Origin: an uncultured Ruminococcus sp.
Lineage (GTDB): Bacteria > Bacillota > Clostridia > Oscillospirales > Ruminococcaceae
Assembly (NCBI GenBank): GCA_902781565.1
Contig: CACZJT010000005.1
Coordinates: 11,902 to 75,901 of the forward strand
Direction: 5' to 3'
Length of the DNA stretch: 64,000 bases
Part shown: positions 10 through 41,647 of the stretch, one piece after another
How the letters are laid out: every line of letters begins with the position of its first letter
How positions within the stretch are numbered: the stretch's first letter is position 1
Notes under the pieces: generated by a model
What the model was told of the DNA's origin: nothing
The model's input: only the letters and a program-made list of their open reading frames with translations
The model's database searches: none
Position numbers and translations under genes: made by a program

Positions 10-25
10 GTTAGTTAGCGCTAAC
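10..25. promoter_or_regulatory. Palindromic box GTTAG-N6-CTAAC, putative metal-responsive repressor site
   Basis: GTTAGttagcgCTAAC; the same motif recurs at 881-896 upstream of the feo genes. Confidence 0.5.
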
Positions 26-3168: not shown

Positions 3169-3449
3169 AAGACAAGGCAGCACCGCACGATCTGCTGCCC
3201 GCGCCTGTTAAGTCATCGCGCCATGATCGGCTCGCTCTCAGCAACGATCTTTGTCTGCTGACACCTTATAGTGACCCAAAAAAGCAGCATAAACATTTCG
3301 AGAGAAAAAATCACAGTTCAAGGAAAACTAACGCAGCCGTGAGTACAAGCACGACTTGAACATCGCACGGCAATGGAGTTTTACGCAGCAATGTGGATTT
3401 TTGACCGAAAGATTTGTGCTGCTATTTTTTTTGGGTCGCAATAACTGTC

Positions 3450-3476
3450 ACACCCTGCCGAACTCCGTCATAATAT
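3450..3476 (+). promoter_or_regulatory. Mother-cell sporulation sigma (sigmaK-like) promoter of cotJ operon
   Basis: ACA-16 nt-CATAATAT, 50 nt upstream of cotJA. Confidence 0.55.
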
Positions 3477-3526: not shown

Positions 3527-3769
3527 ATGGAAGATCTTACAGTTATGATGATCGACAGTCTGACGGGTGACAGTGCCGAAAAGCCTGCGGGAAAATGCCC
3601 CGAAACAAAGGGACGTTTCCCCGATGATACGCCCATAGGCATGGCGTATGTACCTGTTCAGTTCTGGGAAAAGACCTACGACGACGCGATCGCGCTGGCG
3701 AGGGGGACGCTGTTTCCCTCCCTCGACAAGCCGTTCATAGGGGAGGAGGCTGTGAAGCATGGAAAATGA
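3527..3769 (+). CDS. cotJA: Spore coat protein CotJA
   Basis: GMAYVPVQFWEKTY..ALARGTLFPSLDKPF motif; RBS GGAGGT. Confidence 0.9.
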   Translation: MEDLTVMMIDSLTGDSAEKPAGKCPETKGRFPDDTPIGMAYVPVQFWEKTYDDAIALARGTLFPSLDKPFIGEEAVKHGK

Positions 3770-4016
3770 CCGCATAAAGGCGCTTCGCAGACTACAGGCG
3801 GCAAAATTCGCCCTGCATGATGCAGCGCTCTATCTCGACAGCCACCCCAAATGCCAAGAGGGGCTGAGGTATTTCCGCGAAAAGCGCGAGCTCGTCGAAA
3901 AGCTGACGAAAGAGTACGAGAAGGAATACGGTCCGCTGACAGCCGCTGCCTCCTGCGCGGAGGAGCGCTGGGACTGGGTCTGCACGGCGTTCCCGTGGGA
4001 AAGGGGTGAAAGCTGA
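3759..4016 (+). CDS. cotJB: Spore coat protein CotJB
   Basis: ALYLDSHP...YEKEYGPL...WDWVCTAFPWE. Confidence 0.92.
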   Translation: MENDRIKALRRLQAAKFALHDAALYLDSHPKCQEGLRYFREKRELVEKLTKEYEKEYGPLTAAASCAEERWDWVCTAFPWERGES

Positions 4017-4108
4017 TGTTCATGTATGAAAAGACCTTGCAGTATCCCGTAAACATCAAAAACCCGAACCCCGCGCTGGCGAAGGTTATCATAAGTCAGT
4101 TGGGCGGA
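4016..4108 (+). CDS. cotJC: cotJC 5' segment (codons 1-31); in the lysogen it reads on into ANSKKIYHL-stop at 4138
   Basis: MFMYEKTLQYPVNIKNPNPALAKVIISQLGG; ATG overlaps the cotJB stop. Confidence 0.9.
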
Positions 4109-10291: not shown

Positions 10292-11741
10292 TCGTCCAGT
10301 CCGAGAACGTCGGGAAAATGCGGTAGCCCTCCGCGTCCTCGACCTCTGTTATCGCCGTTATTTTTGCCGAGCCCCGCACTCCACGAGCCGTTTCGAGGTA
10401 GACCGTGTCGCCCAGGTCGTAATCGACGCCCGCCTTGTAAAGCCCCGTGTCGGCGATCTGCGCGTTCAGGATTTTCAGCGGCGGCGTTATCCCCGAAGTG
10501 CCCCGCTCCGTGACGTCGGCTTTGTAGTCACTTATCCCGCGGGCGCGGAGTATCTGCGCCTTTGCGGAGGTCAGGTCGGAGGGCGATATGGTCTCGCCCG
10601 TGTACGGCGAAAGCGTGACCCTCGCATAAACCGCGTTTGCAGGCGGGGTCAAGGTTGTCCCGCTCGTTACAACTCCCGGTGATGAGTAGGGGATGTACTC
10701 ACGATTGTGGTCGTAGTAAAGGATTTTGAAGTACAGGGTCTTGTTGCCCGTGCTTCGCGCCGCCGTTATGCTGATACGCTTTCCACACTCGACATACTCT
10801 CCACATCGTATAGACAGGTCGGTAGACACGTCGCTGCCGTCCATACTGCTGTACGTCCCCTGTTCCCAAGTGTACTCCTTGAGGTCAACGCTCACGCTCT
10901 CCTCGGTCGGCACGCCGCTCACACTCATGCTCCCCTCGCGGCGGTCGAAGCCCTGCGAAAGGAAGCTCCCCGCCTGCCGCACAAGGGTGTACGGGTTCGA
11001 GCCGTCCGCCTGCGTTTCGCTGTCGGGTCCCGTCGCGGACACAAATACCACGTTGCATTTATCGCGGATATCCACCTCGTACTCGCAGGAGATCAGCATT
11101 TCGTTGTCCGCCGAAAAAACGACGTGAGGCTTGTCCGAGCCGCGGTAGAACTCGAACGTGAAAACGCCGCCGATGAGCCTGCACCTCAGTCCGCGCCCGA
11201 ACTCGCGGAGCAGTCCGTCAACCGCCGTCAGAAGGTTCTCGCCGCCGAATGTCCGCGTGATGTTGTCCCCGGGGGCAGAGGGTGATTCCACCTCCAAAGG
11301 CGCGAGCTTGCGTGCCGTAGGGTCGTAGCTGTAGTCGCTCTCGATCACCTCGGGGGCAATCATATTGGCGAGCATGAGGTTTCGAGCCACCACCATTGGC
11401 GGATAGTGAGCGTATGTAGTCGGATACCCCACGACCCGCGAAGTCATCACTGCGTCCATAGTCCGCCCGCCGATCAGGATAGTTTCGCCCTCGGCGCTCT
11501 CGGAGAGCTTGAAATCCTCGATGTACATGGGGATATCGTCCCCCTCGCGGGTGACGACGAGCACCCCGATATCCGCGGCGAGAAGCGTGAAAAGCTCCGC
11601 GCTTGACGGCAGATAAAGCTCGAAATTCCCCGGTTCGTCAAAGCACCTCACCCACCGCACGGAGATCGGGCTGTCGATGACCGCGACGGGGTAGACCTCG
11701 CCGCTGACACCGCCTATTTTTTGAATATAGTAGACCATCAC
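10284..11741 (-). CDS. Tail hub/Tal-like protein (ReqiPepy6 Gp37-like)
   Basis: WVRCFDEPGNFELY...YKAGVDYDLGDTV...ITAITE; follows Dit. Confidence 0.8.
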   Translation of the reverse strand: MMVYYIQKIGGVSGEVYPVAVIDSPISVRWVRCFDEPGNFELYLPSSAELFTLLAADIGVLVVTREGDDIPMYIEDFKLSESAEGETILIGGRTMDAVMTSRVVGYPTTYAHYPPMVVARNLMLANMIAPEVIESDYSYDPTARKLAPLEVESPSAPGDNITRTFGGENLLTAVDGLLREFGRGLRCRLIGGVFTFEFYRGSDKPHVVFSADNEMLISCEYEVDIRDKCNVVFVSATGPDSETQADGSNPYTLVRQAGSFLSQGFDRREGSMSVSGVPTEESVSVDLKEYTWEQGTYSSMDGSDVSTDLSIRCGEYVECGKRISITAARSTGNKTLYFKILYYDHNREYIPYSSPGVVTSGTTLTPPANAVYARVTLSPYTGETISPSDLTSAKAQILRARGISDYKADVTERGTSGITPPLKILNAQIADTGLYKAGVDYDLGDTVYLETARGVRGSAKITAITEVEDAEGYRIFPTFSDWTTL

Positions 11742-19319: not shown

Positions 19320-20762
19320 TTAAACATAAACCGTCTGTATCTCTTCCTCATCTTCTGCCGACGCGCACGCCAGGTGCGCAAGGCTCACCGCTTCGAGGAG
19401 CGTTACGTCAGCCTTGTCGAGCATGGAACGGTAGCCGAAGCCGCCGTTGTTTCCGATCGCGCGGTGTTCCGAATTGCTCACCGACTGTTCGAGAGCGGGC
19501 TGTCCCGCATGGCATATGCCGCCCGAAAAAAGCCGCTTCTCGAAGAGCGCGTTCGCTTCCACGATGTCCGAGACCTTGGGCAGGGTCGGCACAAGCTCAA
19601 TGCCCGCGTCCTCCATCTCAGCGGCTAATATCTGCTGATTCCCCGCGCCGTCAATGACCACCGCCGTCACGTTGGGATTTTTCATGTAAGCTATGAGCCA
19701 CGCATTCCCGTCCCGCTGTGAGCGGCAGTCGAGAGCTTCCACGAATATCCTGTCCGCGTCGAGCCTTACAGCTACCGCCGCCGAGACATTTTCCGTATCC
19801 TTGCCGTACTTCACACCGATGAAAAGCGGGTGATCTTCGGGGAGCGCGGGCGGCTCTTTGAGCGCTCTTTCACGCCATTCGGCTCGGCTTATCGCCGACT
19901 TCTGACTGTAGAGTATCCACAAACCCAGCCGCTGTATGTTGTCGTCGAGGAAGTACGGATCGGTGTTCAGCTCACTTCTGACTGTACGCTCCGAAAGTAT
20001 GACCCCGAGGGAGGGATTCGTTTCGTACCAAAGCTCGACATCGTGGGCGTTCGAGAGCTTGCTCACGCCCCATTCCGCCCAGCCGCTGTCGGTCTCCTTG
20101 CCCGATAGGACTTTCTCGCGGAAGTCGGCGAAAACCGCGCCGCCGGAGACCGCCGTCGGCGGCGTTCCGCACATCAGGGTCTGCGGGTTCGGACTGTCGG
20201 TGACGACGTATTTGAGCGCCGTTTCCTGATCGGTGGTGTATTCCTGCGCCTCATCAATTATCAGAAGATCGTAGCCCTCGCCGAGCCCGCCCGTACCCGT
20301 GCGGGTGCGGAAATTTATGATCCCCGGCTCACCATCGCGGCTTTTCAGCCATTTGATATGCTCAAGACCATGACCCCTTGTGGTCTTGTAGTCCTCGTTC
20401 AGCCTGAAGCCCATTTTATCGAGCAGGCGGATAATTTTCAGATACGCGTTCGATGATGTGGTAGTCCTGTGCGCCGTGTAGAGCACCTGTTCTCCGTGGG
20501 TCAAGCCCCATATCGCCCGCATGATGAGCAGCTCCGACTTGCCGTTTCGGCGTGGGATAGACCACCCGAATTTCATGTGTGTCCACAAGCCCTCATCGTT
20601 CACAGCCATGATGTCCGACATCATGAGCTCCTGCCACTCTATAGCCTTCTGCCCCGACTGCTCGTAGAGGAGCACTGCCGCGCCCCCCTTGGTATCCTCG
20701 TAGGGCAGCACCACCGAATCCGTCGGGGTCTGCCGCCCGATACGCTTATCGGGAGCGTTCAA
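19320..20762 (-). CDS. terL: Terminase large subunit
   Basis: PRRNGKS Walker A, LLIIDEAQE Walker B, GTPP coupling motif. Confidence 0.93.
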   Translation of the reverse strand: MNAPDKRIGRQTPTDSVVLPYEDTKGGAAVLLYEQSGQKAIEWQELMMSDIMAVNDEGLWTHMKFGWSIPRRNGKSELLIMRAIWGLTHGEQVLYTAHRTTTSSNAYLKIIRLLDKMGFRLNEDYKTTRGHGLEHIKWLKSRDGEPGIINFRTRTGTGGLGEGYDLLIIDEAQEYTTDQETALKYVVTDSPNPQTLMCGTPPTAVSGGAVFADFREKVLSGKETDSGWAEWGVSKLSNAHDVELWYETNPSLGVILSERTVRSELNTDPYFLDDNIQRLGLWILYSQKSAISRAEWRERALKEPPALPEDHPLFIGVKYGKDTENVSAAVAVRLDADRIFVEALDCRSQRDGNAWLIAYMKNPNVTAVVIDGAGNQQILAAEMEDAGIELVPTLPKVSDIVEANALFEKRLFSGGICHAGQPALEQSVSNSEHRAIGNNGGFGYRSMLDKADVTLLEAVSLAHLACASAEDEEEIQTVYV

Positions 20763-22003
20763 ATGCCCGTCAGCCGCCTCAGCTTATCCTCGGTGAAGTA
20801 GTCGGGGAAGGCTTGCTGAATTTTCAGCACCGCGTCGCCCAGCGTCCCCAGCTCAGACGGCTCGACCGTGAATATCGGCTGCCAGTCGCAGCGGACGTCT
20901 TTTGCGATCGTGCGGCTGTAGCTTTGCCTGTCACGCAGGCAGGCGGCGAGGTAGCCGACGTTTTTCAGACCCGTCCCGAACGTTCTTTGCGCCGCCTGCG
21001 CCGTCAGCCGCAGGTTCTCGTGAGCGGCTTTGATAGCTTCGGCAGTGGTGGGGTTCGAGGTGGAGAATCCGAGATCATCAAGAGTAAGACCGTTCTCACC
21101 TGCGAAAACCGAGGCGAACATTTTGAGCTGTTCGGTGTAGGGGGTCATGCTCTGCTGCTGGAACTGCCCGATGACGGGGTGATCTCCCGACTTCGGGTCC
21201 TTGTCGAAGCGCAGAAGGGTGGAGATGGTCGCTTTCCACTTGTCGAAGGGCGTAGACTTGGGGCTTAGACCGAGGACGTATTTTTGCGGGAAGCTGTAAA
21301 ACTCCGCGCTGACCTCCGAGCGCCACAGAGTACGCGCGGCAGACCTCACAAGTGCCATATTCGAGCGCGAAATGCGGCTGTGACCGAAGGGACGGCTCGC
21401 GTCGGGCTTAAATATCATAGGCACAAGGAGCGCGTAGGGAGCTTTGTGGGTGAAGGTCTCGGAGAGCTTTCCGCGGCGGTATATCTCCGTCCTGCCCGCG
21501 GTGAAGTAGGCTTCGACGGTCGGCTCGGAGAGCGAGGAGAACTCGTTTTCGGGGGCATATCGACCGTCCCGTTCGAGGACAGCGTAGCCCTCGGTCAGAA
21601 GGTTAGTGATCGGGTCGATAACGCCCGTAGCCTCGTGACCGTTTATCACCTGCAAGCGGGGGTAGCCCGTTTCGTCGGAGCTGATGTACACGAAGCTGCA
21701 AGCCGCGATGAGCGCGTCCTTTATCGCCGCGCCCGCGAAAATATCTCGGCTGTTCATGTCAAACAGCTCGTTCAAATAATAATCATCATCGGTGAAGCGG
21801 TCGAAAACGAGCCTGTCCGCGAGGGTGTCCACCGCCTTGGCACACCAGCCGAGGACGGCTTTTAGGCTCGCGAACTGCGGCGGGATAATGGTCGCCGTAG
21901 TGTCAAAGCTGTTTTTCATGTCGTAATAGCGATACCGCAGCCGAACGCGGCTTTGCTTCGCGGCGAGTTTCCGCCGAAGATGTTCTATGCCGTAGGTCTG
22001 CAT
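20759..22003 (-). CDS. Portal protein
   Basis: LGWCAKAVDTLADRL...RPFGHSRISR...AEFYSFPQKY. Confidence 0.9.
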   Translation of the reverse strand: MQTYGIEHLRRKLAAKQSRVRLRYRYYDMKNSFDTTATIIPPQFASLKAVLGWCAKAVDTLADRLVFDRFTDDDYYLNELFDMNSRDIFAGAAIKDALIAACSFVYISSDETGYPRLQVINGHEATGVIDPITNLLTEGYAVLERDGRYAPENEFSSLSEPTVEAYFTAGRTEIYRRGKLSETFTHKAPYALLVPMIFKPDASRPFGHSRISRSNMALVRSAARTLWRSEVSAEFYSFPQKYVLGLSPKSTPFDKWKATISTLLRFDKDPKSGDHPVIGQFQQQSMTPYTEQLKMFASVFAGENGLTLDDLGFSTSNPTTAEAIKAAHENLRLTAQAAQRTFGTGLKNVGYLAACLRDRQSYSRTIAKDVRCDWQPIFTVEPSELGTLGDAVLKIQQAFPDYFTEDKLRRLTGI

Positions 22004-27448: not shown

Positions 27449-29872
27449 TCAGCGATCAATTTTACGGATATAACCCTTTTGCAGACCGTATACTGCGCCG
27501 AACCTTATGCCGTTTTTCGACTTCTCCCACCCCTCCAAGTGGGCTAAGATACCGTTGATCTCGGCGGCGTCCTGTCGCTTGAAATACTTCATATCGCCGC
27601 CCAGCGCCTCGCACCATATCTCAATGGCGCACACGCGGTCGAGCTTTTTGAAGCTAACGCCCTCTGGGTTCATCAGCCCCGAACGGTAGCGCCGCCGTGC
27701 GTCGAGGTCGAGCTTATCCCAGTTGTCGGGTACCTCGCGTTCGACGAATTCGCGGATAATGCCCTCCTTCGCCGAGTGTACCTGGTGGCTCTCCTGCGCC
27801 GCCCTTGCCGCCGCCGCGAGCGCCCCCTTGTCCATATACAGGGATTCGCCCAGCCGCCAGCCGACCAGCGCCTCCGCCCATATCTGCGGCACCTCCGCGG
27901 ACAGGTCGTCGAACACCGACTTTGCAGGCTCATGCACCATGCAGTCTATCGGCAGGAAGCGCCGAGAGCCCGTCTTGTCCCGCAGAAACTCGTCATCGTT
28001 CGTCGTCCCGAAGAACACGCAGCGCCGCGGATAACGCCCAGTGCGCCGTCCGTAGGGCTCGCGGTAGATGTCGTCGGTCTTTGAGAGGAACTGCTTGACG
28101 GCGTTCTCCTCCGAGCGGTTCAGCCCGTTGAGCTCCTGCAATTCTATCAGCCACGAGCCCTGTATCATCTCGCAGGCTTCCTTGCCCTCGAATGTGTTCA
28201 GGCTGTCGTTGAACCAGTCCGCGCCGAGGAGCCGAAGCAGGGTGCTTTTCCCTATGCCCTGCGCCCCGACCAGTATCGGCATGGTGTCGTACTTGACCCC
28301 CGGCTGCATGGCTCTCGCTACCGCCGCGCAAAGGCTCTTTCTCGCCACGGCTCTCGTGTAGGGCGTATCCTCGGCGCCAAGATAGTCGATGAACAGTGTG
28401 TCCAGCCGCGGCACTCCGTCCCATTCGGAAAGGGCGTTAAGATACTGCTGAACGAGATTGACCCTGTTCAGCTCGCAGTACAGCAGGAATCCGTCGGCTA
28501 TCCGCTCCTTGCCCGTAATGCCGTAGACCCTCTCCATGTAGCAGCGCAGCCCCGCGTCGTCGGCGTCCTTCCAGTCCCGCCGCCTGCCCGATGTATCCCA
28601 GGGCAGCTTCCCCGTTATGTAGAGCCTGTTGGAGAACTCATCAAACACCGCCTTCCCCCGAAGCTGCGGGTCGTTCTCAAGCACCAGCAGTACGTTGTCT
28701 ATGGTCTTCAGCGGCTTTCCCGTTTCGGGCGACAGCAGCAGCCGCGTTATCCATTCCGTGTCCTCCTCCTTTGCGATCTCCGCCGTCGGCTCGCCGAAAG
28801 CCGATACTGCCTTTTCGTAACGCTCCCTGCTCATGAGCCGCGCCACCCTTTCGTCGCTCACGGCGAGGCGGCACATCTCTGTAAAGCTCGGCAGCTTGTT
28901 TGCGGGAGTATCGGGCTTTGCTTCGGCGTCCTTCTCGGCGAACAAATGCAGCCTAACGAGGTCGAATGCGTTCACGAGCCTTCCGCCCGCAGGGTCGGTG
29001 GCGTGGTGAGAGTACAGGAACCTGCCGTCCTCGTAAAGCACCGCACCGCCCGTTGTCGAGCCGCCCGTAAAGGTGTAGCGTCCCTCGCCCGCAGCCGTGT
29101 ATCTGTCGGGCAGATACTCCGCAATGACTGTCGGAATATCGTACACACGGCAGAAGGCACCCACGGCGCCCGCCTTTTCGGTGGGGTCTTTCTGCCGCAC
29201 GAGCTTGCCCGTGCCGTTACCACGCGGGATATTCTGCGCCGTCAGTCCCGCCCAGCTCGTGACGTCCCGCCAGTCGGCATACATGGCGAGGAGCCCGTCC
29301 GCGTCGGCAAAGGGCTTATCCGCGCAGGTGTAAACAAAGCTGCTGTCCGCGCAGCATGAGGGATAATACATCAGCCTTGAAGCCTCGAACGTAGTCTTAT
29401 CGCAGAGTTCAAGACCTATTATCTCCCCCGCCTTTCGGGCTATCGGCTCATATTCGTCCGCCGTGACCGTCCTCGAAAGCGGTATCAGCACCCGCAGGCG
29501 CGGAGCCTCGGGGGAGTGCTTTCTCGTCGAATACACGCAGTACCCCACCCCGAGGGTGTCGAGCTTCATGAGCACGCTGTCCGTCTGCCCCGCGGGAATG
29601 TTATCGAGGTCGAGAGTAATGATATCCCGTCCCGTCACGTCGCAGGCACGGCGTTTCTCGCCTCTGAACGTCCCCGCCACGTAGCCGCCGACGTCCTTCA
29701 GCTCGTCCTGCCTTGCCTTCGGCAGATCGCGGTACTGCGCAAGAGTTTCGGTACTTCTGTGAACGTTCCCCAGCCGCCCCCAGAACTCCGAGAGCGTGAG
29801 CGTTTCGGGCTTCCACACTGTAGCCTTACGGCTCGCCCCGACCGTTATCGTTATCATTCTGTCAAATTGCAA
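27449..29872 (-). CDS. Primase-helicase (VirE/VapE family)
   Basis: KDVGGYV, TLDLD, YSTRKH, GAQGIGKST, FFGTTN..FLRDKTG.RRF. Confidence 0.9.
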   Translation of the reverse strand: MQFDRMITITVGASRKATVWKPETLTLSEFWGRLGNVHRSTETLAQYRDLPKARQDELKDVGGYVAGTFRGEKRRACDVTGRDIITLDLDNIPAGQTDSVLMKLDTLGVGYCVYSTRKHSPEAPRLRVLIPLSRTVTADEYEPIARKAGEIIGLELCDKTTFEASRLMYYPSCCADSSFVYTCADKPFADADGLLAMYADWRDVTSWAGLTAQNIPRGNGTGKLVRQKDPTEKAGAVGAFCRVYDIPTVIAEYLPDRYTAAGEGRYTFTGGSTTGGAVLYEDGRFLYSHHATDPAGGRLVNAFDLVRLHLFAEKDAEAKPDTPANKLPSFTEMCRLAVSDERVARLMSRERYEKAVSAFGEPTAEIAKEEDTEWITRLLLSPETGKPLKTIDNVLLVLENDPQLRGKAVFDEFSNRLYITGKLPWDTSGRRRDWKDADDAGLRCYMERVYGITGKERIADGFLLYCELNRVNLVQQYLNALSEWDGVPRLDTLFIDYLGAEDTPYTRAVARKSLCAAVARAMQPGVKYDTMPILVGAQGIGKSTLLRLLGADWFNDSLNTFEGKEACEMIQGSWLIELQELNGLNRSEENAVKQFLSKTDDIYREPYGRRTGRYPRRCVFFGTTNDDEFLRDKTGSRRFLPIDCMVHEPAKSVFDDLSAEVPQIWAEALVGWRLGESLYMDKGALAAAARAAQESHQVHSAKEGIIREFVEREVPDNWDKLDLDARRRYRSGLMNPEGVSFKKLDRVCAIEIWCEALGGDMKYFKRQDAAEINGILAHLEGWEKSKNGIRFGAVYGLQKGYIRKIDR

Positions 29873-29883
29873 GACCCCGCCTC

Positions 29884-31839
29884 CTAATCTTTCTTATAAT
29901 ACCCCCCGACGAAGCCGTCGGCGTTCAGCAAGAGACCTTTCGCCCACGGTATAGGCGGCGCACACATCAGTCTGCACACGCGGTCGAGATCGGCTTTATC
30001 CGACGGCACATCGAGGATAACTTCGTCATGAATGTGCATGACTATCCGATATCCCGCCGCTTCGAGGTTCTCCATCGCCGCCGCAAGGCAGTCCCGGGCT
30101 ATAGCCTGCACTACGTTCTCCGTCAGCTTGCCGCCGTAGGTCTCCAGCTCCGCCCACTTCCCCGTGTTCGTGCCGTAGTAGTGCAGGCTCTCGTTACCGA
30201 AGCGGTTCGGCGCAAAAAAAGGCTCGGCATAGAACAGCTTTCTCCCCGACGGAAGCTGTATCGTGAGGAACCTTAGCCCCTCGGGAGTGCGCTCGTATCT
30301 GAATATCAGCCCCGCCGCTCCGACGGGTACGCCCGTCCGCACTGCTTCCGAGGCGGCGCTTTCAAGCGTATACCAAAGCCTTACGATGTTCGGGCTTGAC
30401 CGCCGCCAGTCGTCCACGATCTGTTTGAGCTCCGTATCGGACATATCCGCGCCGCCCATCTGCTTCATGGCTCCGATACTCCCGCCGTAGCCGCAAGCCA
30501 GCTCCGCCACCTTGCCCTTCTGACGCAGATGACCGTTTACGCCATGCTTCACTACGGGCACTCCGAAGATGTGCGACGCCGAAGCGCAGTAGATGTCCTC
30601 GCCGTTTGCGAAAGCCTTCATGCGCCACGTTTCTCCCGCGAGCCATGCGATCACCCGCGCTTCTATCGCCGAGAAGTCAGCCACGACGAAACGGTGTCCC
30701 TCTGCGGGGATAAAAGCCGTTCGTATCAGCTGCGAGAGCGTATCGGGCACGTTCCCGAACACGATGGCGAGCTCCCCCACGCGCCCCGTTTTCACCAGTT
30801 CCCGGGCGTAATCGAGCTCTTCTATGTAGTTGCGGGGAAGGTTCTGCATCTGCACCAGCCGCCCCGCCCAGCGCCCCGTTCTCGAAGCGCCGTAGAATTG
30901 CAGAAGTCCCCGTATACGCCCGTCGGGGCAAACGCAGTCAAGCATTGCCTTATATTTCGACACCGACGTTTTCCCGAGCCGCTGTTTCAGCTCCAGCGCA
31001 GTCCTGACCTTTATCGGGAGATATTCGCGGTCAAGATATTCTTCGACAGCCGCCTTGTCCAGCTTCGGCACCTCCTCGCCCAGCTGTTCGGACAGCCACG
31101 ACTTCATCTGCGCGGTGCTTTTGGGATTCGCCACGCCCGTTATCTGCCGCAACTGACTTTTGAGTCCTTCGAGCTCCGCGTCGGCGTAGGCTTTCGCGCC
31201 CTCGGCTAAGTCCATGTCGAGGCGCACCCCCGCGAGGTTCACGCGCATATCCTGCTCCCATTCTCTCTGCACCTCATCGGGTACGGGGAATGCCGAAAGC
31301 CTGCGCTCTACCTCCATTTCGGTCACTACGTCCTGCTTGCAGTAGCTTTTGAACAGCTCCCACTTCTGCGGCTCCTGCGCGGGTGAAACGGGCTGACCGT
31401 TCTTTTGCGGTACGCAGAACCTCGCTATCAGACTGCTTCCTATCCTGTCCTTCTGCTTGTCCGCAGGCAGCCCGAGGACTTCGCCGACCTTCCCCAAGCC
31501 CCCGATCAGACCGCAGTACAGTCCGTGTACCATCGTACATCTCCACTGACTCAGCCACTCCTCGGGCTTTTTCGTCCCGAAATACTTCGACAGGCAGTAC
31601 CACTCAAACGCCGCGTTGTAGGCGTGCTTTACGACCTCGGGCGAAAACAGCGCCGTCCGCAGCTCCGCGGGTATCGTTTCGCCGTTCGCAAGGTCGATGA
31701 TGTCGGGGGGCTCTCCGTCAAAGCTGTAGGCGAGGAGCAGTATTCGGAAAGCGCGGGACTGCACATATCTGTACAGCCCCGCTTTCTTGATGCTTTCGTC
31801 CGAATATGTTTCGATGTCGATGGACAAATGCCGTATCAC
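29884..31839 (-). CDS. Phage DNA polymerase, family A
   Basis: DIETYS exonuclease, TGRWAG, ADFSAIEARV, RQKGKVAELACGYGG, HIHDE. Confidence 0.93.
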   Translation of the reverse strand: MIRHLSIDIETYSDESIKKAGLYRYVQSRAFRILLLAYSFDGEPPDIIDLANGETIPAELRTALFSPEVVKHAYNAAFEWYCLSKYFGTKKPEEWLSQWRCTMVHGLYCGLIGGLGKVGEVLGLPADKQKDRIGSSLIARFCVPQKNGQPVSPAQEPQKWELFKSYCKQDVVTEMEVERRLSAFPVPDEVQREWEQDMRVNLAGVRLDMDLAEGAKAYADAELEGLKSQLRQITGVANPKSTAQMKSWLSEQLGEEVPKLDKAAVEEYLDREYLPIKVRTALELKQRLGKTSVSKYKAMLDCVCPDGRIRGLLQFYGASRTGRWAGRLVQMQNLPRNYIEELDYARELVKTGRVGELAIVFGNVPDTLSQLIRTAFIPAEGHRFVVADFSAIEARVIAWLAGETWRMKAFANGEDIYCASASHIFGVPVVKHGVNGHLRQKGKVAELACGYGGSIGAMKQMGGADMSDTELKQIVDDWRRSSPNIVRLWYTLESAASEAVRTGVPVGAAGLIFRYERTPEGLRFLTIQLPSGRKLFYAEPFFAPNRFGNESLHYYGTNTGKWAELETYGGKLTENVVQAIARDCLAAAMENLEAAGYRIVMHIHDEVILDVPSDKADLDRVCRLMCAPPIPWAKGLLLNADGFVGGYYKKD

Positions 31840-32444
31840 AGCGGCAGACCCGTGATCGGGTCAACGGCAGGAGCACCGCCGGGATAGAACATTGGCGCGG
31901 ACTGAGCCGAAGGAGCACCGCCAAAGGCGTCGGCTACCGATACCCCGCCCCCGAGGGGGTCCCCGTCACGGAGCTTCTGGACGGCTTCAAGCCCGAAGCC
32001 TATGCCGCGCTTGCCGTTTGAGTTGTAGGCGAACATGGAGATGCACACCCTCGCGTAGCAGCCCGAATACAGCTCGCCCTTCTGCATGATGGGGTTCATG
32101 CCCGCGTCCACGAGCTGTACGGGGTTCCTGCTCGACGCCGTGAACACCCAATGACCCCTGCACTCCGCGCCGAACTGCTCCCCGTTCGGGCGCACTCCGT
32201 CGCCGTCATATACGGGCAGCGCAAGCACGGGAGGCTGTACGCCGTTCCACTTTTCCGCGATACCCTTCTGCGTGGTATACTGAACGGCAGCGTCGAGCCT
32301 TGCCTTTGCCGCCGTATCCGACTTCGGCATGAGTACGGTAACGCTGTACTTGGGCTCGCCCCCGTTATTGCTGTAGGGCTCGTAAAGGTGTGCGTAGGAC
32401 AGGCGTACCTCGCCCGTTGTCATCTGATTCTGATTAAGTGCCAT
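31836..32444 (-). CDS. ssDNA-binding protein (DUF2815, gp2.5-like)
   Basis: VRLSYAHL...KYSVT...DGD...YSGCYAR...GLEAVQKLRDG. Confidence 0.88.
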   Translation of the reverse strand: MALNQNQMTTGEVRLSYAHLYEPYSNNGGEPKYSVTVLMPKSDTAAKARLDAAVQYTTQKGIAEKWNGVQPPVLALPVYDGDGVRPNGEQFGAECRGHWVFTASSRNPVQLVDAGMNPIMQKGELYSGCYARVCISMFAYNSNGKRGIGFGLEAVQKLRDGDPLGGGVSVADAFGGAPSAQSAPMFYPGGAPAVDPITGLPL

Positions 32445-32457
32445 GATCTTTTCCTCC

Positions 32458-33612
32458 TTAGTTATCTTTGAACATTTCGGCTATTCTCGTTTGCGAGAAC
32501 GCCTTTCTTTTATCACTTTCGGGTACCAGCGTCGGTTTGCCCGAAGGCTTCGTGATGTAGTTCCCGATAAGCTCAGTCAGCTTCTTTCTGCCGCAGAGCT
32601 TTTCGAGTGCGGTAAGTCCGAGGGGCTTGCGTTCGTAGAGCAGCTCACTGCCGTACCCTGCGGCTTCCAGCGCTGCAAAGGCTCCGTTTATATCGGAGAT
32701 GGCGCGAACGCTCCGCCCCTCTACGAGCTTCCAGTGAGGAACGGGTTCTCCGCGCAGCAGCTTATCGTACACGTACTCCTCCAGCCCCTTGACCCACCCT
32801 GCGAGCAGCTGCGCCCTCAGAAGAACCTCTCCGATCTCCTCGTCTGTCAGCATTTCGCCGCGGTCCTCGCGGGCTTTCTGTTCCTCCGCGGAAAGCAGCA
32901 TTTCCGCCCGTGCGCGGCATTTTGCTTTAGCCTTGCAGAATCGGCAATGCTCACCCGGGACGAACTCGCCGCCCGCAGCGATCGAAGCCTTCACCCTGCG
33001 CCCGAACTTGTCGCCCCATGCGGTCAGCTCCTCTGCGGGCATACACGCCGAACAGATGTTATCTATCCGCGGCTGAATGATATTCATGAAAACTGTTTTG
33101 ATCTTTCCGAATACCGAATATTCTCCGATCGCGCCGAGAGCATAGAGCCGCAACTGTGGGTTATTCTCCGCGCTGACCGAAACGCCCTTGCCGTACTTGA
33201 AGTCGAATATGTGAAGTATTGTTCCGTATAATACGATACAATCCGCTGTTCCGAAGCAGTCGGGGACGATGTGCCCCATGTCAAGGCGTTTTTCAACTAT
33301 AACATAGGGCTTTTCGGGGAAGGCGCAGCAGACCTTCATTATCTCATCGGCATAGATGTCCGTGTATTCCTCCATCTCCTTCTGATACAGTGGGTCGGCG
33401 CGGAGCATATCCAGTCTGCTTTTGCACACATCTGCGGGCAATAGACCGAATCGACTGCACAGCTTCAGCTCGGCGATAGCGTGCGCCAGCGTCCCCTCTG
33501 CGGCGTATTCGCTGTCCGTTTCGGGGATATTCTCCTCGGCTCTGACCGAAGCCGTACAGGTGCCCCATACCGCCGCATGAGAGGGGGAGTATCTCGCGTG
33601 TATCCCGGGCAT
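32458..33612 (-). CDS. PD-(D/E)XK exonuclease (DUF2800)
   Basis: HARYSPS...EGTLAH...FGTADC...DFKYGKG...NPQLRLYALG. Confidence 0.88.
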   Translation of the reverse strand: MPGIHARYSPSHAAVWGTCTASVRAEENIPETDSEYAAEGTLAHAIAELKLCSRFGLLPADVCKSRLDMLRADPLYQKEMEEYTDIYADEIMKVCCAFPEKPYVIVEKRLDMGHIVPDCFGTADCIVLYGTILHIFDFKYGKGVSVSAENNPQLRLYALGAIGEYSVFGKIKTVFMNIIQPRIDNICSACMPAEELTAWGDKFGRRVKASIAAGGEFVPGEHCRFCKAKAKCRARAEMLLSAEEQKAREDRGEMLTDEEIGEVLLRAQLLAGWVKGLEEYVYDKLLRGEPVPHWKLVEGRSVRAISDINGAFAALEAAGYGSELLYERKPLGLTALEKLCGRKKLTELIGNYITKPSGKPTLVPESDKRKAFSQTRIAEMFKDN

Positions 33613-36370: not shown

Positions 36371-36568
36371 TTAAGTTCCGTATTTTTCAACTATCTTCCG
36401 CGCCTCATCGGGGCGGGCGGAGAGGGCGGTGCCCATCGCTTCGGCGAACCTCTTGCCCAGCTCTCCGCGCACCTCCGCGCGCTTCTCGGGCGGAAGATCG
36501 TCTAAGACCACCCTGACCCCGTTCACGCTGACCGTGCTTATTACCTTGTACTCATTCATCTTTGCCAT
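36371..36568 (-). CDS. 65-aa protein behind a sigmaK-like promoter; candidate recombination directionality factor
   Basis: ORF with RBS GAGGTG; function inferred from context only. Confidence 0.55.
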   Translation of the reverse strand: MAKMNEYKVISTVSVNGVRVVLDDLPPEKRAEVRGELGKRFAEAMGTALSARPDEARKIVEKYGT

Positions 36569-36586
36569 AAAATATCACCTCATCGT

Positions 36587-36613
36587 ATTATATGCGGGTG
36601 CGGTTGTCCGTGT
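36587..36613 (-). promoter_or_regulatory. sigmaK-like promoter inside the early phage operon
   Basis: ACA-16 nt-CATATAAT, same geometry as the cotJA promoter. Confidence 0.55.
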
Positions 36614-37273: not shown

Positions 37274-37302
37274 TTGACATTCCTTTCATTTTGTATTATA
37301 AT
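37274..37302 (+). promoter_or_regulatory. Consensus sigmaA promoter of the YozE-like gene
   Basis: TTGACA-17-TATAAT. Confidence 0.75.
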
Positions 37303-37333
37303 TGATACAAATAAATGAAGGGAGGCGGCTTTT

Positions 37334-37558
37334 ATGACCTTTAAGGAATGGTTGATACGCCACAAAGGAGAAGATTCGCCGCTGGGCGACTTGGCGGAGG
37401 ACGTTGCGTTAGATAAGGATTTTCCGTCAGAAAATTCAAGAGAAGCAATAATGGATCATCTGACCGGGGCTGGCGTACACGCCTGCACAGAAGCCATTGA
37501 AACCTTTAAACGCGCTTGGTCTTCTTACCGCGCTTACGAGAAGAAGCATTCCGAATGA
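37334..37558 (+). CDS. YozE/SAM-like protein
   Basis: MTFKEWL...DSPLGDLAEDVALDKDFP...AW..Y; RBS GGAGG. Confidence 0.8.
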   Translation: MTFKEWLIRHKGEDSPLGDLAEDVALDKDFPSENSREAIMDHLTGAGVHACTEAIETFKRAWSSYRAYEKKHSE

Positions 37559-37697: not shown

Positions 37698-37940
37698 TTA
37701 CAGGGTCGTTTCACTCACGTTGGCGTTTTTGCCTACATCGTCAGCAAAAAAAATAGCCTGCTGTTCATGCTCGGATAGTCCGAGCAGCTGTATCAGCTTT
37801 TTGATTTCGGACCCTTTAAACTCTCTGACACCGTTGAGTTTGTTATACAACCCTTGCCTTGTAAGACCGAGTTCCTCGGCGATCGAGTTTTTAGAGAGTT
37901 TACATTCCTCGATCTTTTCGCTAAGTATCTGACTGTTCAA
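37698..37940 (-). CDS. Cro-like HTH regulator
   Basis: IAEELGLTRQGLYNKLNG.REFK.SEI...AIFF; divergent from the repressor. Confidence 0.85.
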   Translation of the reverse strand: MNSQILSEKIEECKLSKNSIAEELGLTRQGLYNKLNGVREFKGSEIKKLIQLLGLSEHEQQAIFFADDVGKNANVSETTL

Positions 37941-37957: not shown

Positions 37958-38125
37958 TTGTAGACTACTTGTCTACAATAACATTATACACCCTGTAGGC
38001 GTAAATGTCAACATATTTTTACCTAAAATAATGCACAAACTTTTGTAGTCTTTTTTGTCTACAATGTCAATTTATTTTTACAGGTGTAAATAATTGTTGA
38101 CATTCGCGGAAACAGATGATATAAT
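37958..38125. promoter_or_regulatory. Genetic switch: two divergent consensus promoters and palindromic operators
   Basis: Minus TTGACA(38011)-17-TATAAT(37988); plus TTGACA(38097)-17-TATAAT(38120); TTGTAGAC-5-GTCTACAA at 37958 with variants at 37994 and 38043. Confidence 0.8.
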
Positions 38126-38145
38126 TATTGCATGGAGGTGATACT

Positions 38146-38796
38146 ATGACAATAGGCGAAAAGATCAAACAGGCGAGACTTGATAAAGGACTTACGCAAG
38201 AGGAGCTTGCTTCAAAACTCGGATATAAGTCTCGTTCGTCTGTCAATAAGATAGAAACGGGAGGCAGAGATATTCCCAGAAGTCAAATTAAAAAGATTGC
38301 AGAAATACTTCAAGTTTCCCCTATTTCTTTATTGGGCTGGGAGGACGAACGACCCGCCTGCGACGACCTTTCCGTGCTCTCCGAGCGTTACGACAATATC
38401 CTGCCCGTGAAGCTGAAACGCTTTCCTCTCCTCGGAGAGATCGCCTGCGGTGAGCCTGTTTTCGCCGATGAGGACAAGGAAAGCTATGTAATGGCTGATA
38501 TGGATATACACGCTGATTTCTGCCTTCGGGCAAAGGGAGACAGCATGATAAATGCCCGTATCTTTGACGGTGATCTTGTGTTCGTCCGTAAAATGCCGAT
38601 AGTTGACAACGGTGATATCGCCGCAGTCATCATAGAGGACGAAGCGACCCTCAAACGGGTCTATTACGACAGAGAGAATAACCTTTTACAGCTCGTTGCC
38701 GAGAACCCGAGATATAAGCCCTTTGTTTACAGAGGAGAGGAGCTCGACCATGTCCGCATACTCGGCAAGGCTGTTTATTTTATGAGTGCATTATAA
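38146..38796 (+). CDS. CI/LexA-like prophage repressor (HTH + S24 peptidase)
   Basis: XRE HTH, IACG cleavage site, GDSM serine, ATLKR lysine. Confidence 0.92.
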   Translation: MTIGEKIKQARLDKGLTQEELASKLGYKSRSSVNKIETGGRDIPRSQIKKIAEILQVSPISLLGWEDERPACDDLSVLSERYDNILPVKLKRFPLLGEIACGEPVFADEDKESYVMADMDIHADFCLRAKGDSMINARIFDGDLVFVRKMPIVDNGDIAAVIIEDEATLKRVYYDRENNLLQLVAENPRYKPFVYRGEELDHVRILGKAVYFMSAL

Positions 38797-38973: not shown

Positions 38974-39528
38974 ATGGCTATAAAGGAAAACGAAAAGCCG
39001 CGCCTGAATGCGGCGCAATTTACTGCTGTGACCAAATTCAGCAATGAACGGCTGGAGCTTTTAGACGGCGAGATAGTGGCGCTCGGCGCGCCCAGCGAAC
39101 TTCATCAAACGATCGCGGGACGCTTGTTTTCAAGTCTTGACGGACATACCATCAAGAACAACGGAAAATGCAAGGTACTGATCTCGCCCTTTGAAGTTGT
39201 GCTTGACGATGATAATGTAGTCCAGCCCGATCTGCTCGTTGTGTGCGACCGAAGCAAGCTCGACGGCAAACGGGCAAACGGCGCTCCCGATCTCGTTATC
39301 GAGATACTGTCCGAAAGCAGCAGAAAACGCGACCTTGTGGACAAATACGTACTATACGCAAACAGCGGCGTCCGCGAATACTGGATAATCGACCCCTCCG
39401 AGGAAAGAACCATAGTCTATCTTTTCGGTGAGACTATCCGCATCGGATTCTACCCCTTCGACAAGCCTATCCCCGTGGGTATCTGGGACGGTGCGCTTGA
39501 AATAACAATAGCCGAACTGCTCGGCTGA
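38974..39528 (+). CDS. Uma2-family endonuclease
   Basis: ELLDG...P..LH...VQPD...GAPDLVIEILS...K..LY...GVREYWIIDP. Confidence 0.9.
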   Translation: MAIKENEKPRLNAAQFTAVTKFSNERLELLDGEIVALGAPSELHQTIAGRLFSSLDGHTIKNNGKCKVLISPFEVVLDDDNVVQPDLLVVCDRSKLDGKRANGAPDLVIEILSESSRKRDLVDKYVLYANSGVREYWIIDPSEERTIVYLFGETIRIGFYPFDKPIPVGIWDGALEITIAELLG

Positions 39529-39657: not shown

Positions 39658-41106
39658 ATGAAAACTGCCGCCGCGTATATCCGCGTTTCCACCGACGATC
39701 AGGTGGAGTTTTCGCCCGACAGCCAGCTCAAAGCCATTCGCAAGTACGCCAAGGACCATGACTTCGTACTGCCTAAAGAGTTCATTTTCGTTGACGAGGG
39801 CATAAGCGGACGCACCGCCGCAAAACGCCCCGAGTTCAACCGCATGATCGGCACGGCTAAGTCTACCCCGAAGCCATTCGACACCATACTGCTCTGGAAG
39901 TTCAGCCGTTTCGCCCGCAACCGTCAGGACAGTATCGTTTACAAATCCATGCTCCGCAAGCAGTGCGGCATTGATGTTGTGAGCGTGTCGGAACAGCTGG
40001 GCGAGGACAACACCTCTATCCTCATCGAAGCGCTCATCGAGGCTATGGACGAATACTACAGCCTGAACCTCGCCGAGGAGGTAAAGCGCGGCATGAACGA
40101 GAAGTTCTCCCGCGGAGGTGTGGTCTCACAGCCACCTTTCGGCTACAAGATGAAGGACGGCATTTTCGCTCCCGATGAGAACGCCGCGCCGATCGTCCGC
40201 ATGATCTACGCCGACTATCTCGCAGGTAAGGGCGCGCGTCAGATCGCTAAGGAGCTGAATCACAAGGGCATTACCACGAGCAAGGGAGGGAAGTGGGAGA
40301 ACCGCACCGTCGAGTACGTCCTGACCAATCAGACCTACCTCGGCAAAATGCGCCGCAGCACCGACCCGCGTAATAAGTACGACCGCTTCCACGAGGACGT
40401 GAACCTCGTTGACGGCGCTCACGAGCCTCTGATCTCCGAGGAGACCTTCGCCGCCGTGCAGGAACGCCGCGCCGAGATCAAAAAGACCTACGGCAAATAC
40501 GCTCGTCATGCTCCCGTGAATTTCATGCTTAAAGGCGTAGTCCGCTGTGACAATTGTGGTGCGACCCTCGTTGCCACCGCCAACCGCGACCGCCTGCAAT
40601 GCCATAACTACAACCGCGGCACCTGCAATGTCTCGCATTCCGTGAGCATTGAAGCCCTCACGCGGCTGGTGCTCGACAAGCTCCGCGCGGATATGGAGTG
40701 TGCCGATACCGAGGTGGAGATCGTGACCACTGCCGCCGCCGAGAACGTTCACGAGGACGACACGGAGTTCCTGCTCTCGCGCGAGTACAAGAAGCTGGAG
40801 CGTATCAGGGAAGCCTACGAAGCGGGTATCGACACCCTCGATGAGTACAGGGTGAACAAGCAGAAGATACAGCGGCGCATTGACGAGATCAGAGCCGAAG
40901 CGGAAGCCGCGAAGCCTGCTCATGTCCTGACCTCCGAGGAGAGACAGCAGGCAGTCCGCGCGAGGATACGTCTCGGGCTGGACACTCTTGCTTCCCCCGA
41001 TGTGAGCGAGACCACCAAAAACGAAGTCCTCCGCTCACTGGTAGAGCGCATAGTTTTCGTCAAGCCGAAAAAGGTGATAGAGATAGTCTATAAGGGCGAT
41101 TTTTAG
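39658..41106 (+). CDS. Large serine recombinase (integrase)
   Basis: YIRVSTDDQ catalytic Ser, SRFAR, recombinase domain, CDNCG zinc ribbon, coiled coil; ends next to the att junction. Confidence 0.96.
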   Translation: MKTAAAYIRVSTDDQVEFSPDSQLKAIRKYAKDHDFVLPKEFIFVDEGISGRTAAKRPEFNRMIGTAKSTPKPFDTILLWKFSRFARNRQDSIVYKSMLRKQCGIDVVSVSEQLGEDNTSILIEALIEAMDEYYSLNLAEEVKRGMNEKFSRGGVVSQPPFGYKMKDGIFAPDENAAPIVRMIYADYLAGKGARQIAKELNHKGITTSKGGKWENRTVEYVLTNQTYLGKMRRSTDPRNKYDRFHEDVNLVDGAHEPLISEETFAAVQERRAEIKKTYGKYARHAPVNFMLKGVVRCDNCGATLVATANRDRLQCHNYNRGTCNVSHSVSIEALTRLVLDKLRADMECADTEVEIVTTAAAENVHEDDTEFLLSREYKKLERIREAYEAGIDTLDEYRVNKQKIQRRIDEIRAEAEAAKPAHVLTSEERQQAVRARIRLGLDTLASPDVSETTKNEVLRSLVERIVFVKPKKVIEIVYKGDF

Positions 41107-41119
41107 TGCGGGTTTGGGG

Positions 41120-41143
41120 TATATCTTTTTGGGGTTGGGCGGA
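41120..41143. other. Right attachment junction: arm TATATCTTTTTGG (41120-41132) and core GTTGGGCGGA (41134-41143)
   Basis: Matches the left junction. Confidence 0.92.
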
Positions 41144-41647
41144 CCGGACGGAGAGGTCGGCGCGGCTATGCGCTATCTCAACCAGCGCTACGCCGCTCCC
41201 TGCCGCGAGGTACAGGGGATACTGACGGATATAGGCACCGAAGAACTGGGTCACATGGAGATGGTATCGGCTATTCTTTACCAGCTCACCCGCGGGCTTT
41301 CGATGAAGGAGATCAAGGAGTCGGGGTTTGACGCTTATTTTGTCGATCATACTACGGGTATCTACCCCGCCGCCGCTTCGGGTCCGGCATTTACTGCGGA
41401 TTATATCCAGTCCACGGGCGACCCGCTTGCCGACCTGCATGAGGATCTCGCCGCCGAACAGAAGGCGCGGCTTACCTACGATAATATCCTTCGGCTTGCC
41501 GACGATCCCGACGTCCGCGACCCTATCAAGTTCCTCCGCGAACGCGAGATAGTGCATTATCAGAGGTTCGGCGAGGGCTTGCGGAAGATCCAGGATATGC
41601 TCGATTCCAGGAACTTCTACGCCTTTAATCCCTCATTCGATAAATGA
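41144..41647 (+). CDS. cotJC: cotJC 3' segment (manganese catalase family, 167 aa)
   Basis: PDGE...RYL.QR...DIGTEELGHMEM...DLAAEQKAR...REREIVHYQRFGE; in frame with the 5' segment across the core. Confidence 0.93.
   Translation, partial: PDGEVGAAMRYLNQRYAAPCREVQGILTDIGTEELGHMEMVSAILYQLTRGLSMKEIKESGFDAYFVDHTTGIYPAAASGPAFTADYIQSTGDPLADLHEDLAAEQKARLTYDNILRLADDPDVRDPIKFLREREIVHYQRFGEGLRKIQDMLDSRNFYAFNPSFDK

Follow-up and report, generated by a model that had tools for sequence, protein, structure and literature searches.

The prophage dividing cotJC

The stretch of DNA analysed here (the window, 64,000 nucleotides from an uncultured Ruminococcus sp.) contains a cotJC gene that is split after codon 31 by an element of 37,035 bp, as measured between its attL and attR cores. 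The element is a complete temperate prophage of 37 kb, with genes for head, tail, lysis and replication as well as cI and cro. The features bearing on its integration and early transcription are:

3450..3476 (+): sigmaK-like motif ACA-16-CATAATAT before cotJA-cotJB
3527-4016: cotJA-cotJB, upstream of the cotJC 5' part
4016..4108 (+): cotJC 5' part, 31 codons
4099..4108 (+): attL core, GTTGGGCGGA, 10 bp
36371..36568 (-): 65-aa ORF, likely directionality factor (RDF) of the prophage integrase; PHROG 26314, function unknown
37274-37558 (+): YozE-like gene with its own perfect TTGACA-17-TATAAT, pointing against the early operon
37698..37940 (-): cro-like HTH gene, head of the early operon
37983..38011 (-): sigmaA promoter before cro, TTGACA-17-TATAAT, 12/12
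38128..38796 (+): cI-type repressor (HTH and S24 peptidase)
39658..41106 (+): large serine recombinase (LSR, the integrase), 482 aa
41134..41143 (+): attR core, GTTGGGCGGA, 10 bp
41135..41647 (+): cotJC 3' part (Mn catalase family)

The LSR gene ends 27 nt before the 10-bp core that recurs at 4099, and crossing at the two cores rejoins the halves of cotJC in frame to encode 198 aa. As in SPbeta, a complete temperate phage lies between att cores, and recombination at these would restore a split sporulation gene. Contigs from three other gut-metagenome studies begin at 4099 and run into the 30 nt preceding the right core (two exactly, one with three differences); as they span the attP junction, this junction is real DNA in close relatives, and they are compatible with a virion, a circle or a sporulation product alike. 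The host genome contains spoIIID and spoIVA along with sigK-like and sigE-like genes, the last two both scoring below the curated sigmaK cut-off and being named from score and N-terminus.

Several other observations were made in this region. In run X1, read depth rises to 145-286, against approximately 11, over positions 3228-3441 immediately upstream of the cotJ promoter, which suggests that a repeated element lies there. A putative endonuclease of the Uma2 family (38974-39528, +) is found between cI and the integrase, and in one of 62 related loci. A module of exonuclease, SSB, family A polymerase and primase-helicase genes (27449-33612, -) is shared with the cotJC phage of genome G747 (L123:8220-14524).

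A small early protein of an unnamed family

The 65-aa ORF is encoded inside the element, in the early operon, and begins with an ATG at 36568. Used as a single-sequence query, its translation matched two proteins, but nothing in viral contigs, phages or metagenome contigs and none of 400 family-level genomes, whilst an Atlas search returned unnamed clusters alone, at 0.80-0.82. The family came to light only once loci had been collected via the integrase. At E <= 0.001, a profile built from these matched 751 clusters of proteins (50% identity), the best 150 of which were mostly 56-100 aa long. PHROG 26314 was matched by 26 of the 41 aligned members, and no member shared a family in Pfam or NCBIfam. 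This family of 751 clusters appears to be without a name so far. The aligned members had diverged too far for the viral contigs to be scanned with a pattern, so members accompanying other integrases were sought in genome samples only.

Co-occurrence with the integrase clade

Eighty viral loci were gathered by LSR similarity alone, 62 of which had at least 4 kb upstream of the LSR. An iterated profile found an ORF homolog in 64 of the 80 (weakest E 0.14) and in 59 of the 62, although such counts overstate independence, since many of these loci are near duplicates. There was one homolog per locus, invariably on the opposite strand to the LSR and at a median distance of 3 kb. Three long loci with around 10 kb upstream (L023, L024 and L046) have an LSR with no homolog detectable by the profile; their RDF may lie elsewhere or belong to a different family.

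The association was specific to this ORF amongst its neighbours. When every ORF was put through an identical pipeline with single-sequence seeds against the 62 loci, the 65-aa ORF matched 45, once each, against 0-2 for each of 16 other non-HTH neighbours; seeds from two HTH neighbours gave promiscuous matches. In this comparison, 10 kb upstream of each related integrase was examined. Of the 60 loci in which sufficient DNA was available downstream, 57 have a Gly-Gly-type core after the LSR (background 38%), and pieces of cotJC adjoin the LSR in 22 viral loci, 21 being 3' parts and one a 5' part.

The reciprocal search, which is favoured by the training of the profile on LSR-linked homologs, gave a similar association. 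At the order level the ORF profile matched 14 of 400 genomes; the same LSR clade was present in the fetched stretch of 12, the other two being contig ends, and a cotJC piece adjoined the integrase in 11 of the 12 that had the LSR. At the class level ten further genomes matched and five were kept, four with the LSR clade and the remaining one a contig end. Taking both levels together, 16 of 19 genomes carry the same integrase clade and the three misses are contig ends. The five class-level matches excluded were weak (E 8e-5 to 6e-4), and lay inside ORFs of 346-3945 aa.

Insertion into cotJC takes more than one form across these loci. The att core behind the integrase is inverted (CCGCC, not GGCGG) in L002, L004, L006-L010, L017, L026, L107 and others, and in L026 and L107 the cotJC 5' part lies beside the integrase; the inversion of the core relative to the integrase indicates that part of the clade enters cotJC in the opposite orientation. 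In L019, L032, L037, L042, L047, L101, L108 and L110 the cotJC 3' part is broken again after approximately 33-36 codons, so that there is apparently a second insertion hot spot within the gene. In L019, the part at 11454-11561 resumes about 9 kb on, at 20620-20847, and near the rebroken part of L101 and of L108 there is a second serine recombinase, a distant one.

Co-divergence and stripped-down elements

Distances between integrases were correlated with those between the accompanying ORF homologs (Mantel rho 0.63, p 0.001, 33 pairs, which include non-independent kin), more strongly for the DBD2 domain of the LSR (0.65) than for the catalytic domain (0.55). The cI and cro genes sit between the ORF and the integrase, yet showed no such correlation (cI, rho -0.10, 32 loci; cro, rho 0.07, 25 loci), with the proviso that these genes were chosen automatically and may be noisy.

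The pair also persists where little else of a phage does. In G653 (L120:831-11271), a 9.8-kb element in cotJC has the ORF homolog and the LSR as its only phage-type genes, the remainder being an esterase, a hydrolase and a MATE-like transporter, host-like cargo as judged from the translations. The two genes are arranged head-to-head, 116-242 nt apart, in six loci. In G593, a head-to-head pair (L122:9660-11909) lies amid host-like genes, and the 3' part of cotJC converges on its integrase, whilst the 5' part is on a separate contig (L121:1841-1999); we regard this as a rearranged or domesticated element. Genome G1077 has cotJA-cotJB and the cotJC 5' part at approximately 225.4-225.8 kb of contig C1 (-; locus L149), and the homolog, the integrase and the cotJC 3' part at approximately 451-453 kb of the same contig (+; L147:3222-5520). 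These halves, on a single contig of a genome with a contamination figure of 11, are 227 kb apart on opposite strands and have a common core; recombination between att sites so placed would invert the intervening segment instead of excising it.

Predicted complex with the integrase

AlphaFold2 models the 65-aa protein as a beta hairpin and two helices (pLDDT 89.7). A sequence search of the PDB gave nothing below E 0.12 and Foldseek nothing at E 0.001, the best structural match having a Z score of 3.7 and an rmsd of 6.4 over 57 residues, though the lack of a PDB match is no proof of a new fold. The earlier note on this DNA had proposed modelling each small ORF with the recombinase coiled coil; for the 65-aa ORF and LSR residues 272-482 (DBD2), the predicted complex scored 0.78, whereas the best of three unrelated control proteins scored 0.01. 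Among solved complexes, 116 of 157 attained the mark for this score, as did 2 of 215 mismatched pairs, a calibration that is roughly applicable because our own alignments were used here. Contact agreement between runs was at least 84% and partner pLDDT at least 80.

In the model, ORF residues 8-14 pair with the last strand of the LSR (473-478), and further contacts fall on LSR helices at 331-347, 426-445 and 451-461, which flank the coiled coil; the contacting stretches of the LSR are 333-349, 433-461 and 472-482. The coiled coil itself is predicted at 359-418, inside DBD2; the contacts are at its base and none are named at its tip. Verified RDFs bind the junction of DBD2 and the coiled coil, most of them adding a strand to DBD2 (PMC12286644), and the same mode, at DBD2 and the coiled-coil base, is described in PMC11722253. 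The modelled interface of the 65-aa protein, at that junction and not the tip, would place it among these RDFs, as do its small size, its location within the element of its integrase and its cognate pairing with that integrase. The score may nevertheless partly reflect likeness to solved integrase-RDF complexes, and of 11 virtual-pulldown matches tested previously four were false positives, including Cb16, which docked at the right site (PMC12286644).

A conserved promoter motif before the ORF

The earlier note had drawn attention to an ACA-16-CATATAAT motif 19 nt upstream of the 65-aa ORF, with the same geometry as one before cotJA. Both were found as described: ACA-CGGACAACCGCACCCG-CATATAAT occupies 36613-36587 (-) and is followed by 18 nt, including GAGGTG, such that the ATG starts at the 19th, and ACA-16-CATAATAT lies at 3450-3476 (+). 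The elements of the region are:

36611..36613 (-): -35 position, ACA here (sigmaK-like), ATA (sigmaE-like) in most homologs
36604..36609 (-): GGACAA box in the promoter spacer, G[GT]ACAA in the family and similar to a SpoIIID site; 27/49 regions, 21/345 controls
36587..36594 (-): -10 element CATATAAT, sigmaE/sigmaK type
36576..36581 (-): Shine-Dalgarno GAGGTG, from the sequence

The bare motif is not enriched over chance across the genome: ACA-N16-CATAnnnT has 108 matches in 2.87 Mb, against 56-119 with other spacers of 10-23 nt, and three in the window, against an expectation of about 2.4 per 64 kb. What raises it above chance is its conservation before the ORF homologs. We compared 49 dereplicated upstream regions (of 78, including the prophage copy; L109 was omitted as its start is uncertain) with 345 regions upstream of other ORFs in the same loci, using patterns picked after inspection of the data. 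ATAG[GT]ACA was present in 19 of the 49 and none of the controls, [GT]ACA-10..13-[CAG]ATA in 33 against nine, ATA-16..18-CATA in 13 against two, and ACA-16-CATA in two against none. A sigmaE-type -35, with ATA 16-18 nt before the -10, was found in 27 of the 49 and 13 of the 345, but not in the prophage copy. The features conserved across homologs are the -10, the G[GT]ACAA box within the spacer and, predominantly, an ATA -35. By a loose pattern, the motif is kept in all six head-to-head modules. The host sigK and spoIIID genes are themselves preceded by ATA-17-CATA motifs, and the -10-like element before spoIIID has the same eight letters, CATATAAT.

SigmaH promoters have a spacing of 17-18 nt; a sigmaH reading of the region (AGGA...GAAT) gave three matches amongst the 78 upstream regions, with spacers of 13, 13 and 18, and was rejected.

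The -35 of sigmaE promoters is ATA and that of sigmaK promoters AC, with the -10 being shared, and cotJ-type operons of C. difficile are controlled by sigmaK (PMC3789822). When the 49 regions are classed by this consensus, 23 have ATA, four AC and nine another -35, with 13 lacking an anchor. Hence the label 'sigmaK-like', as originally given to this promoter, suits the prophage copy (AC at -35, CATA---T at -10) and a few near relatives, but does not extend to the family, in which the AC-type -35 is not conserved and the promoter looks sigmaE-like with a SpoIIID-like box, overlooked in the earlier note, in its spacer. From its sequence and conservation, the motif at 36613-36587 is probably a mother-cell promoter.

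For the box, we put the chances of SpoIIID acting there as roughly even, judging by motif resemblance. In B. subtilis, the consensus for SpoIIID is WWRRACARNY. This B. subtilis form was matched by 14 of the 49 regions and ten of the 345 controls, with the prophage copy one letter off, whilst the C. difficile consensus KRTAACARK (PMC5025042) was matched by one of 47 upstream regions. SpoIIID sites that overlap polymerase sites generally repress (PMC517825), so the box could give a pulse as opposed to activation, or might bind something else.

Proposed wiring to the phage early operon

Five co-oriented genes extend from the cro promoter to the 65-aa ORF, and between cro and the ORF are two weak terminator-like hairpins and the opposing YozE-like gene. 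Read-through from the cro promoter on induction is suggested by analogy with sprB (PMC4191935, PMC6957869). Motifs for both promoter types, a presumably inducible sigmaA promoter before cro and a putative mother-cell one, are present in the prophage, and dual wiring to induction and sporulation is plausible from the layout.

A likely directionality factor with two proposed routes of expression

The 65-aa ORF is a likely excision helper because it travels with the integrase, is predicted to bind it and is preceded by a conserved sporulation-type promoter motif, and we consider it very probably the RDF of the cotJC-splitting prophage. The original suggestion was that this ORF or one of the next small genes was the RDF; two-way co-occurrence, co-divergence, the stripped elements and the predicted complex strongly favour the ORF itself. 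The protein would add a beta strand to DBD2 of the integrase and grip the base of the coiled coil, and that grip would switch the integrase from integration to excision. On phage induction the ORF would be expressed by read-through from the cro promoter, whilst in the sporulating mother cell it would be expressed from its own promoter at 36613-36587. Having its own mother-cell promoter would allow the prophage to be excised and cotJC rebuilt with the remaining phage genes off. To this account as a whole, comprising the RDF, two-way expression and mother-cell excision of the cotJC prophage, we assign a probability of about 0.75.

The alternative that retains most weight, though an improbable one, accepts the ORF as the RDF but takes the motif for a sigmaA promoter of low strength or for an operator bound by some regulator, whether of the phage or of the host, so that excision would follow induction only. 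The prophage copy can indeed be read as TCAACA-18-TATAAT, matching 10 of 12 positions; this reading is not conserved in the family, however, with TATAAT found in 3 of 49 regions and 16 of 345 controls, whilst the ATA-16..18-CATA arrangement enriched before the homologs corresponds to the published sigmaE form (PMC3789822). An operator would fit with the chance-level frequency of the bare motif genome-wide, with the host sigK and spoIIID genes, whose upstream motif regions lack a G[GT]ACAA box, and with two genomes in which an intact cotJC accompanies the module (L117 of G548 and L150 of G1127), these being either second copies or mixed assemblies. Yet the family motif agrees with the host's own sigK and spoIIID motifs, and is kept in the head-to-head modules, where cI and cro are absent between the pair.

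It is less probable still that the protein binds the integrase without a role in excision, for instance as an inhibitor of re-integration, or that it is a merely linked false positive of the pulldown. The binding is a model prediction, Cb16 shows that a false positive can dock at the right site (PMC12286644), and three loci have no ORF homolog; against this, the ORF co-diverges with the integrase when the intervening cI and cro do not, its homolog is the sole partner retained in stripped elements, and none of the 16 neighbours is another conserved non-HTH small ORF. We think it very unlikely that the 65-aa ORF is an ordinary early gene and the RDF some other prophage gene. SprB does lie far from its integrase, at the other end of SPbeta (PMC6957869), and our systematic comparison spanned 10 kb upstream of related integrases, but the neighbouring ORFs are not conserved, the reciprocal search links the ORF to the integrase clade, and apart from the pair no phage gene can be recognised in the G653 element.

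A much broader reading of the dual-promoter RDF, speculative and in our view unlikely as a whole, is that a class-wide clade of gut Clostridia phages carries a portable module, comprising the integrase, a member of the new family of RDFs and a sigmaE promoter whose spacer contains a SpoIIID box. Judging by the sequences, the box might shape a brief mother-cell pulse of the RDF, lineages might shift its timing through a change of the -35 from ATA to ACA, and hosts might domesticate the two-gene module after phage decay. In at least one genome, G1077, the module might rebuild cotJC by programmed inversion of the mother-cell chromosome between att sites 227 kb apart.

Significance

To our knowledge, RDFs are difficult to recognise from sequence, and no RDF has been assigned to the majority of large serine integrases. 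A likely function is now available for PHROG 26314, a family that has no name (751 clusters at 50% identity), which would offer many natural integrase-RDF-att sets for reversible genome engineering. The finding also bears on whether the common cotJC-splitting elements of gut spore-formers are excised on schedule: a mother-cell-type promoter that is conserved in front of the likely excision factor in particular, and that persists in elements which have lost their phage genes, is evidence at the sequence level for scheduled excision. The question is thereby reduced to a testable system of two genes and one 27-bp promoter.

Comparison with known systems

The closest parallel is SprA/SprB of SPbeta, which splits spsM in Bacillus subtilis and is likewise a temperate phage, and an active one, dividing a mother-cell spore-surface gene (PMC4191935, PMC6957869, PMC11722253). 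On induction, co-transcription of its RDF starts from a sigmaA phage promoter lying upstream, a layout to which that deduced here is analogous, and has its own sigmaE/K promoter approximately 20 nt before the start, a position similar to that of the motif described here. The SPbeta RDF binds DBD2 and the base of the coiled coil, the site modelled for the 65-aa protein. The present system differs in its clostridial host and cotJC target, in the location of the likely RDF, which belongs to the cro operon and lies about 3 kb from the integrase as opposed to the far end of the phage, and in having a conserved internal promoter box; the PDB searches linked the protein to no solved RDF, whether by sequence or by fold.

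Laceyella sacchari is a member of the Bacilli. A skin-like element in its cotJC has already put this gene in print as an insertion site, in one sentence of the main text, where neither an RDF nor a promoter is described (bioRxiv 10.1101/2022.02.25.481979). The yin element in yabG is a clostridial sporulation-gene element with a candidate RDF, HEQ52_18460, proposed from AlphaFold and having a putative sigmaK promoter; its target gene and integrase are different, and as presented in the available part of that paper it is a single case without family-level conservation (PMC10747680). In skin(Cd) of Clostridioides difficile (CD1231/CD1234) and skin of B. subtilis (SpoIVCA/Skr), a small RDF is under sigmaE and SpoIIID (PMC5025042, PMC6957869). 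The G653 element and the head-to-head modules resemble these skin-type elements; however, skin elements are defective phages splitting sigK (PMC5025042, PMC6957869), whereas a complete phage splits cotJC here. The centre of the CD1234 SpoIIID motif lies 46 bp upstream of the start site, in contrast to the box between the -35 and -10 in the present case (PMC5025042).

A literature search, with subscription papers and bioRxiv supplements outside its scope, turned up no publication in which cotJC elements are assigned an RDF. The supplementary file of PMC12286644 does not contain the integrase motif KFSRFARN, and the available excerpts of PMC11222575 and PMC11795197 contain nothing specific on this system. 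Whilst the likely mode of action resembles that already known from SPbeta SprA/SprB, and CD1234 of C. difficile is a further known case of this kind, the family to which the likely RDF belongs seems to be unnamed.
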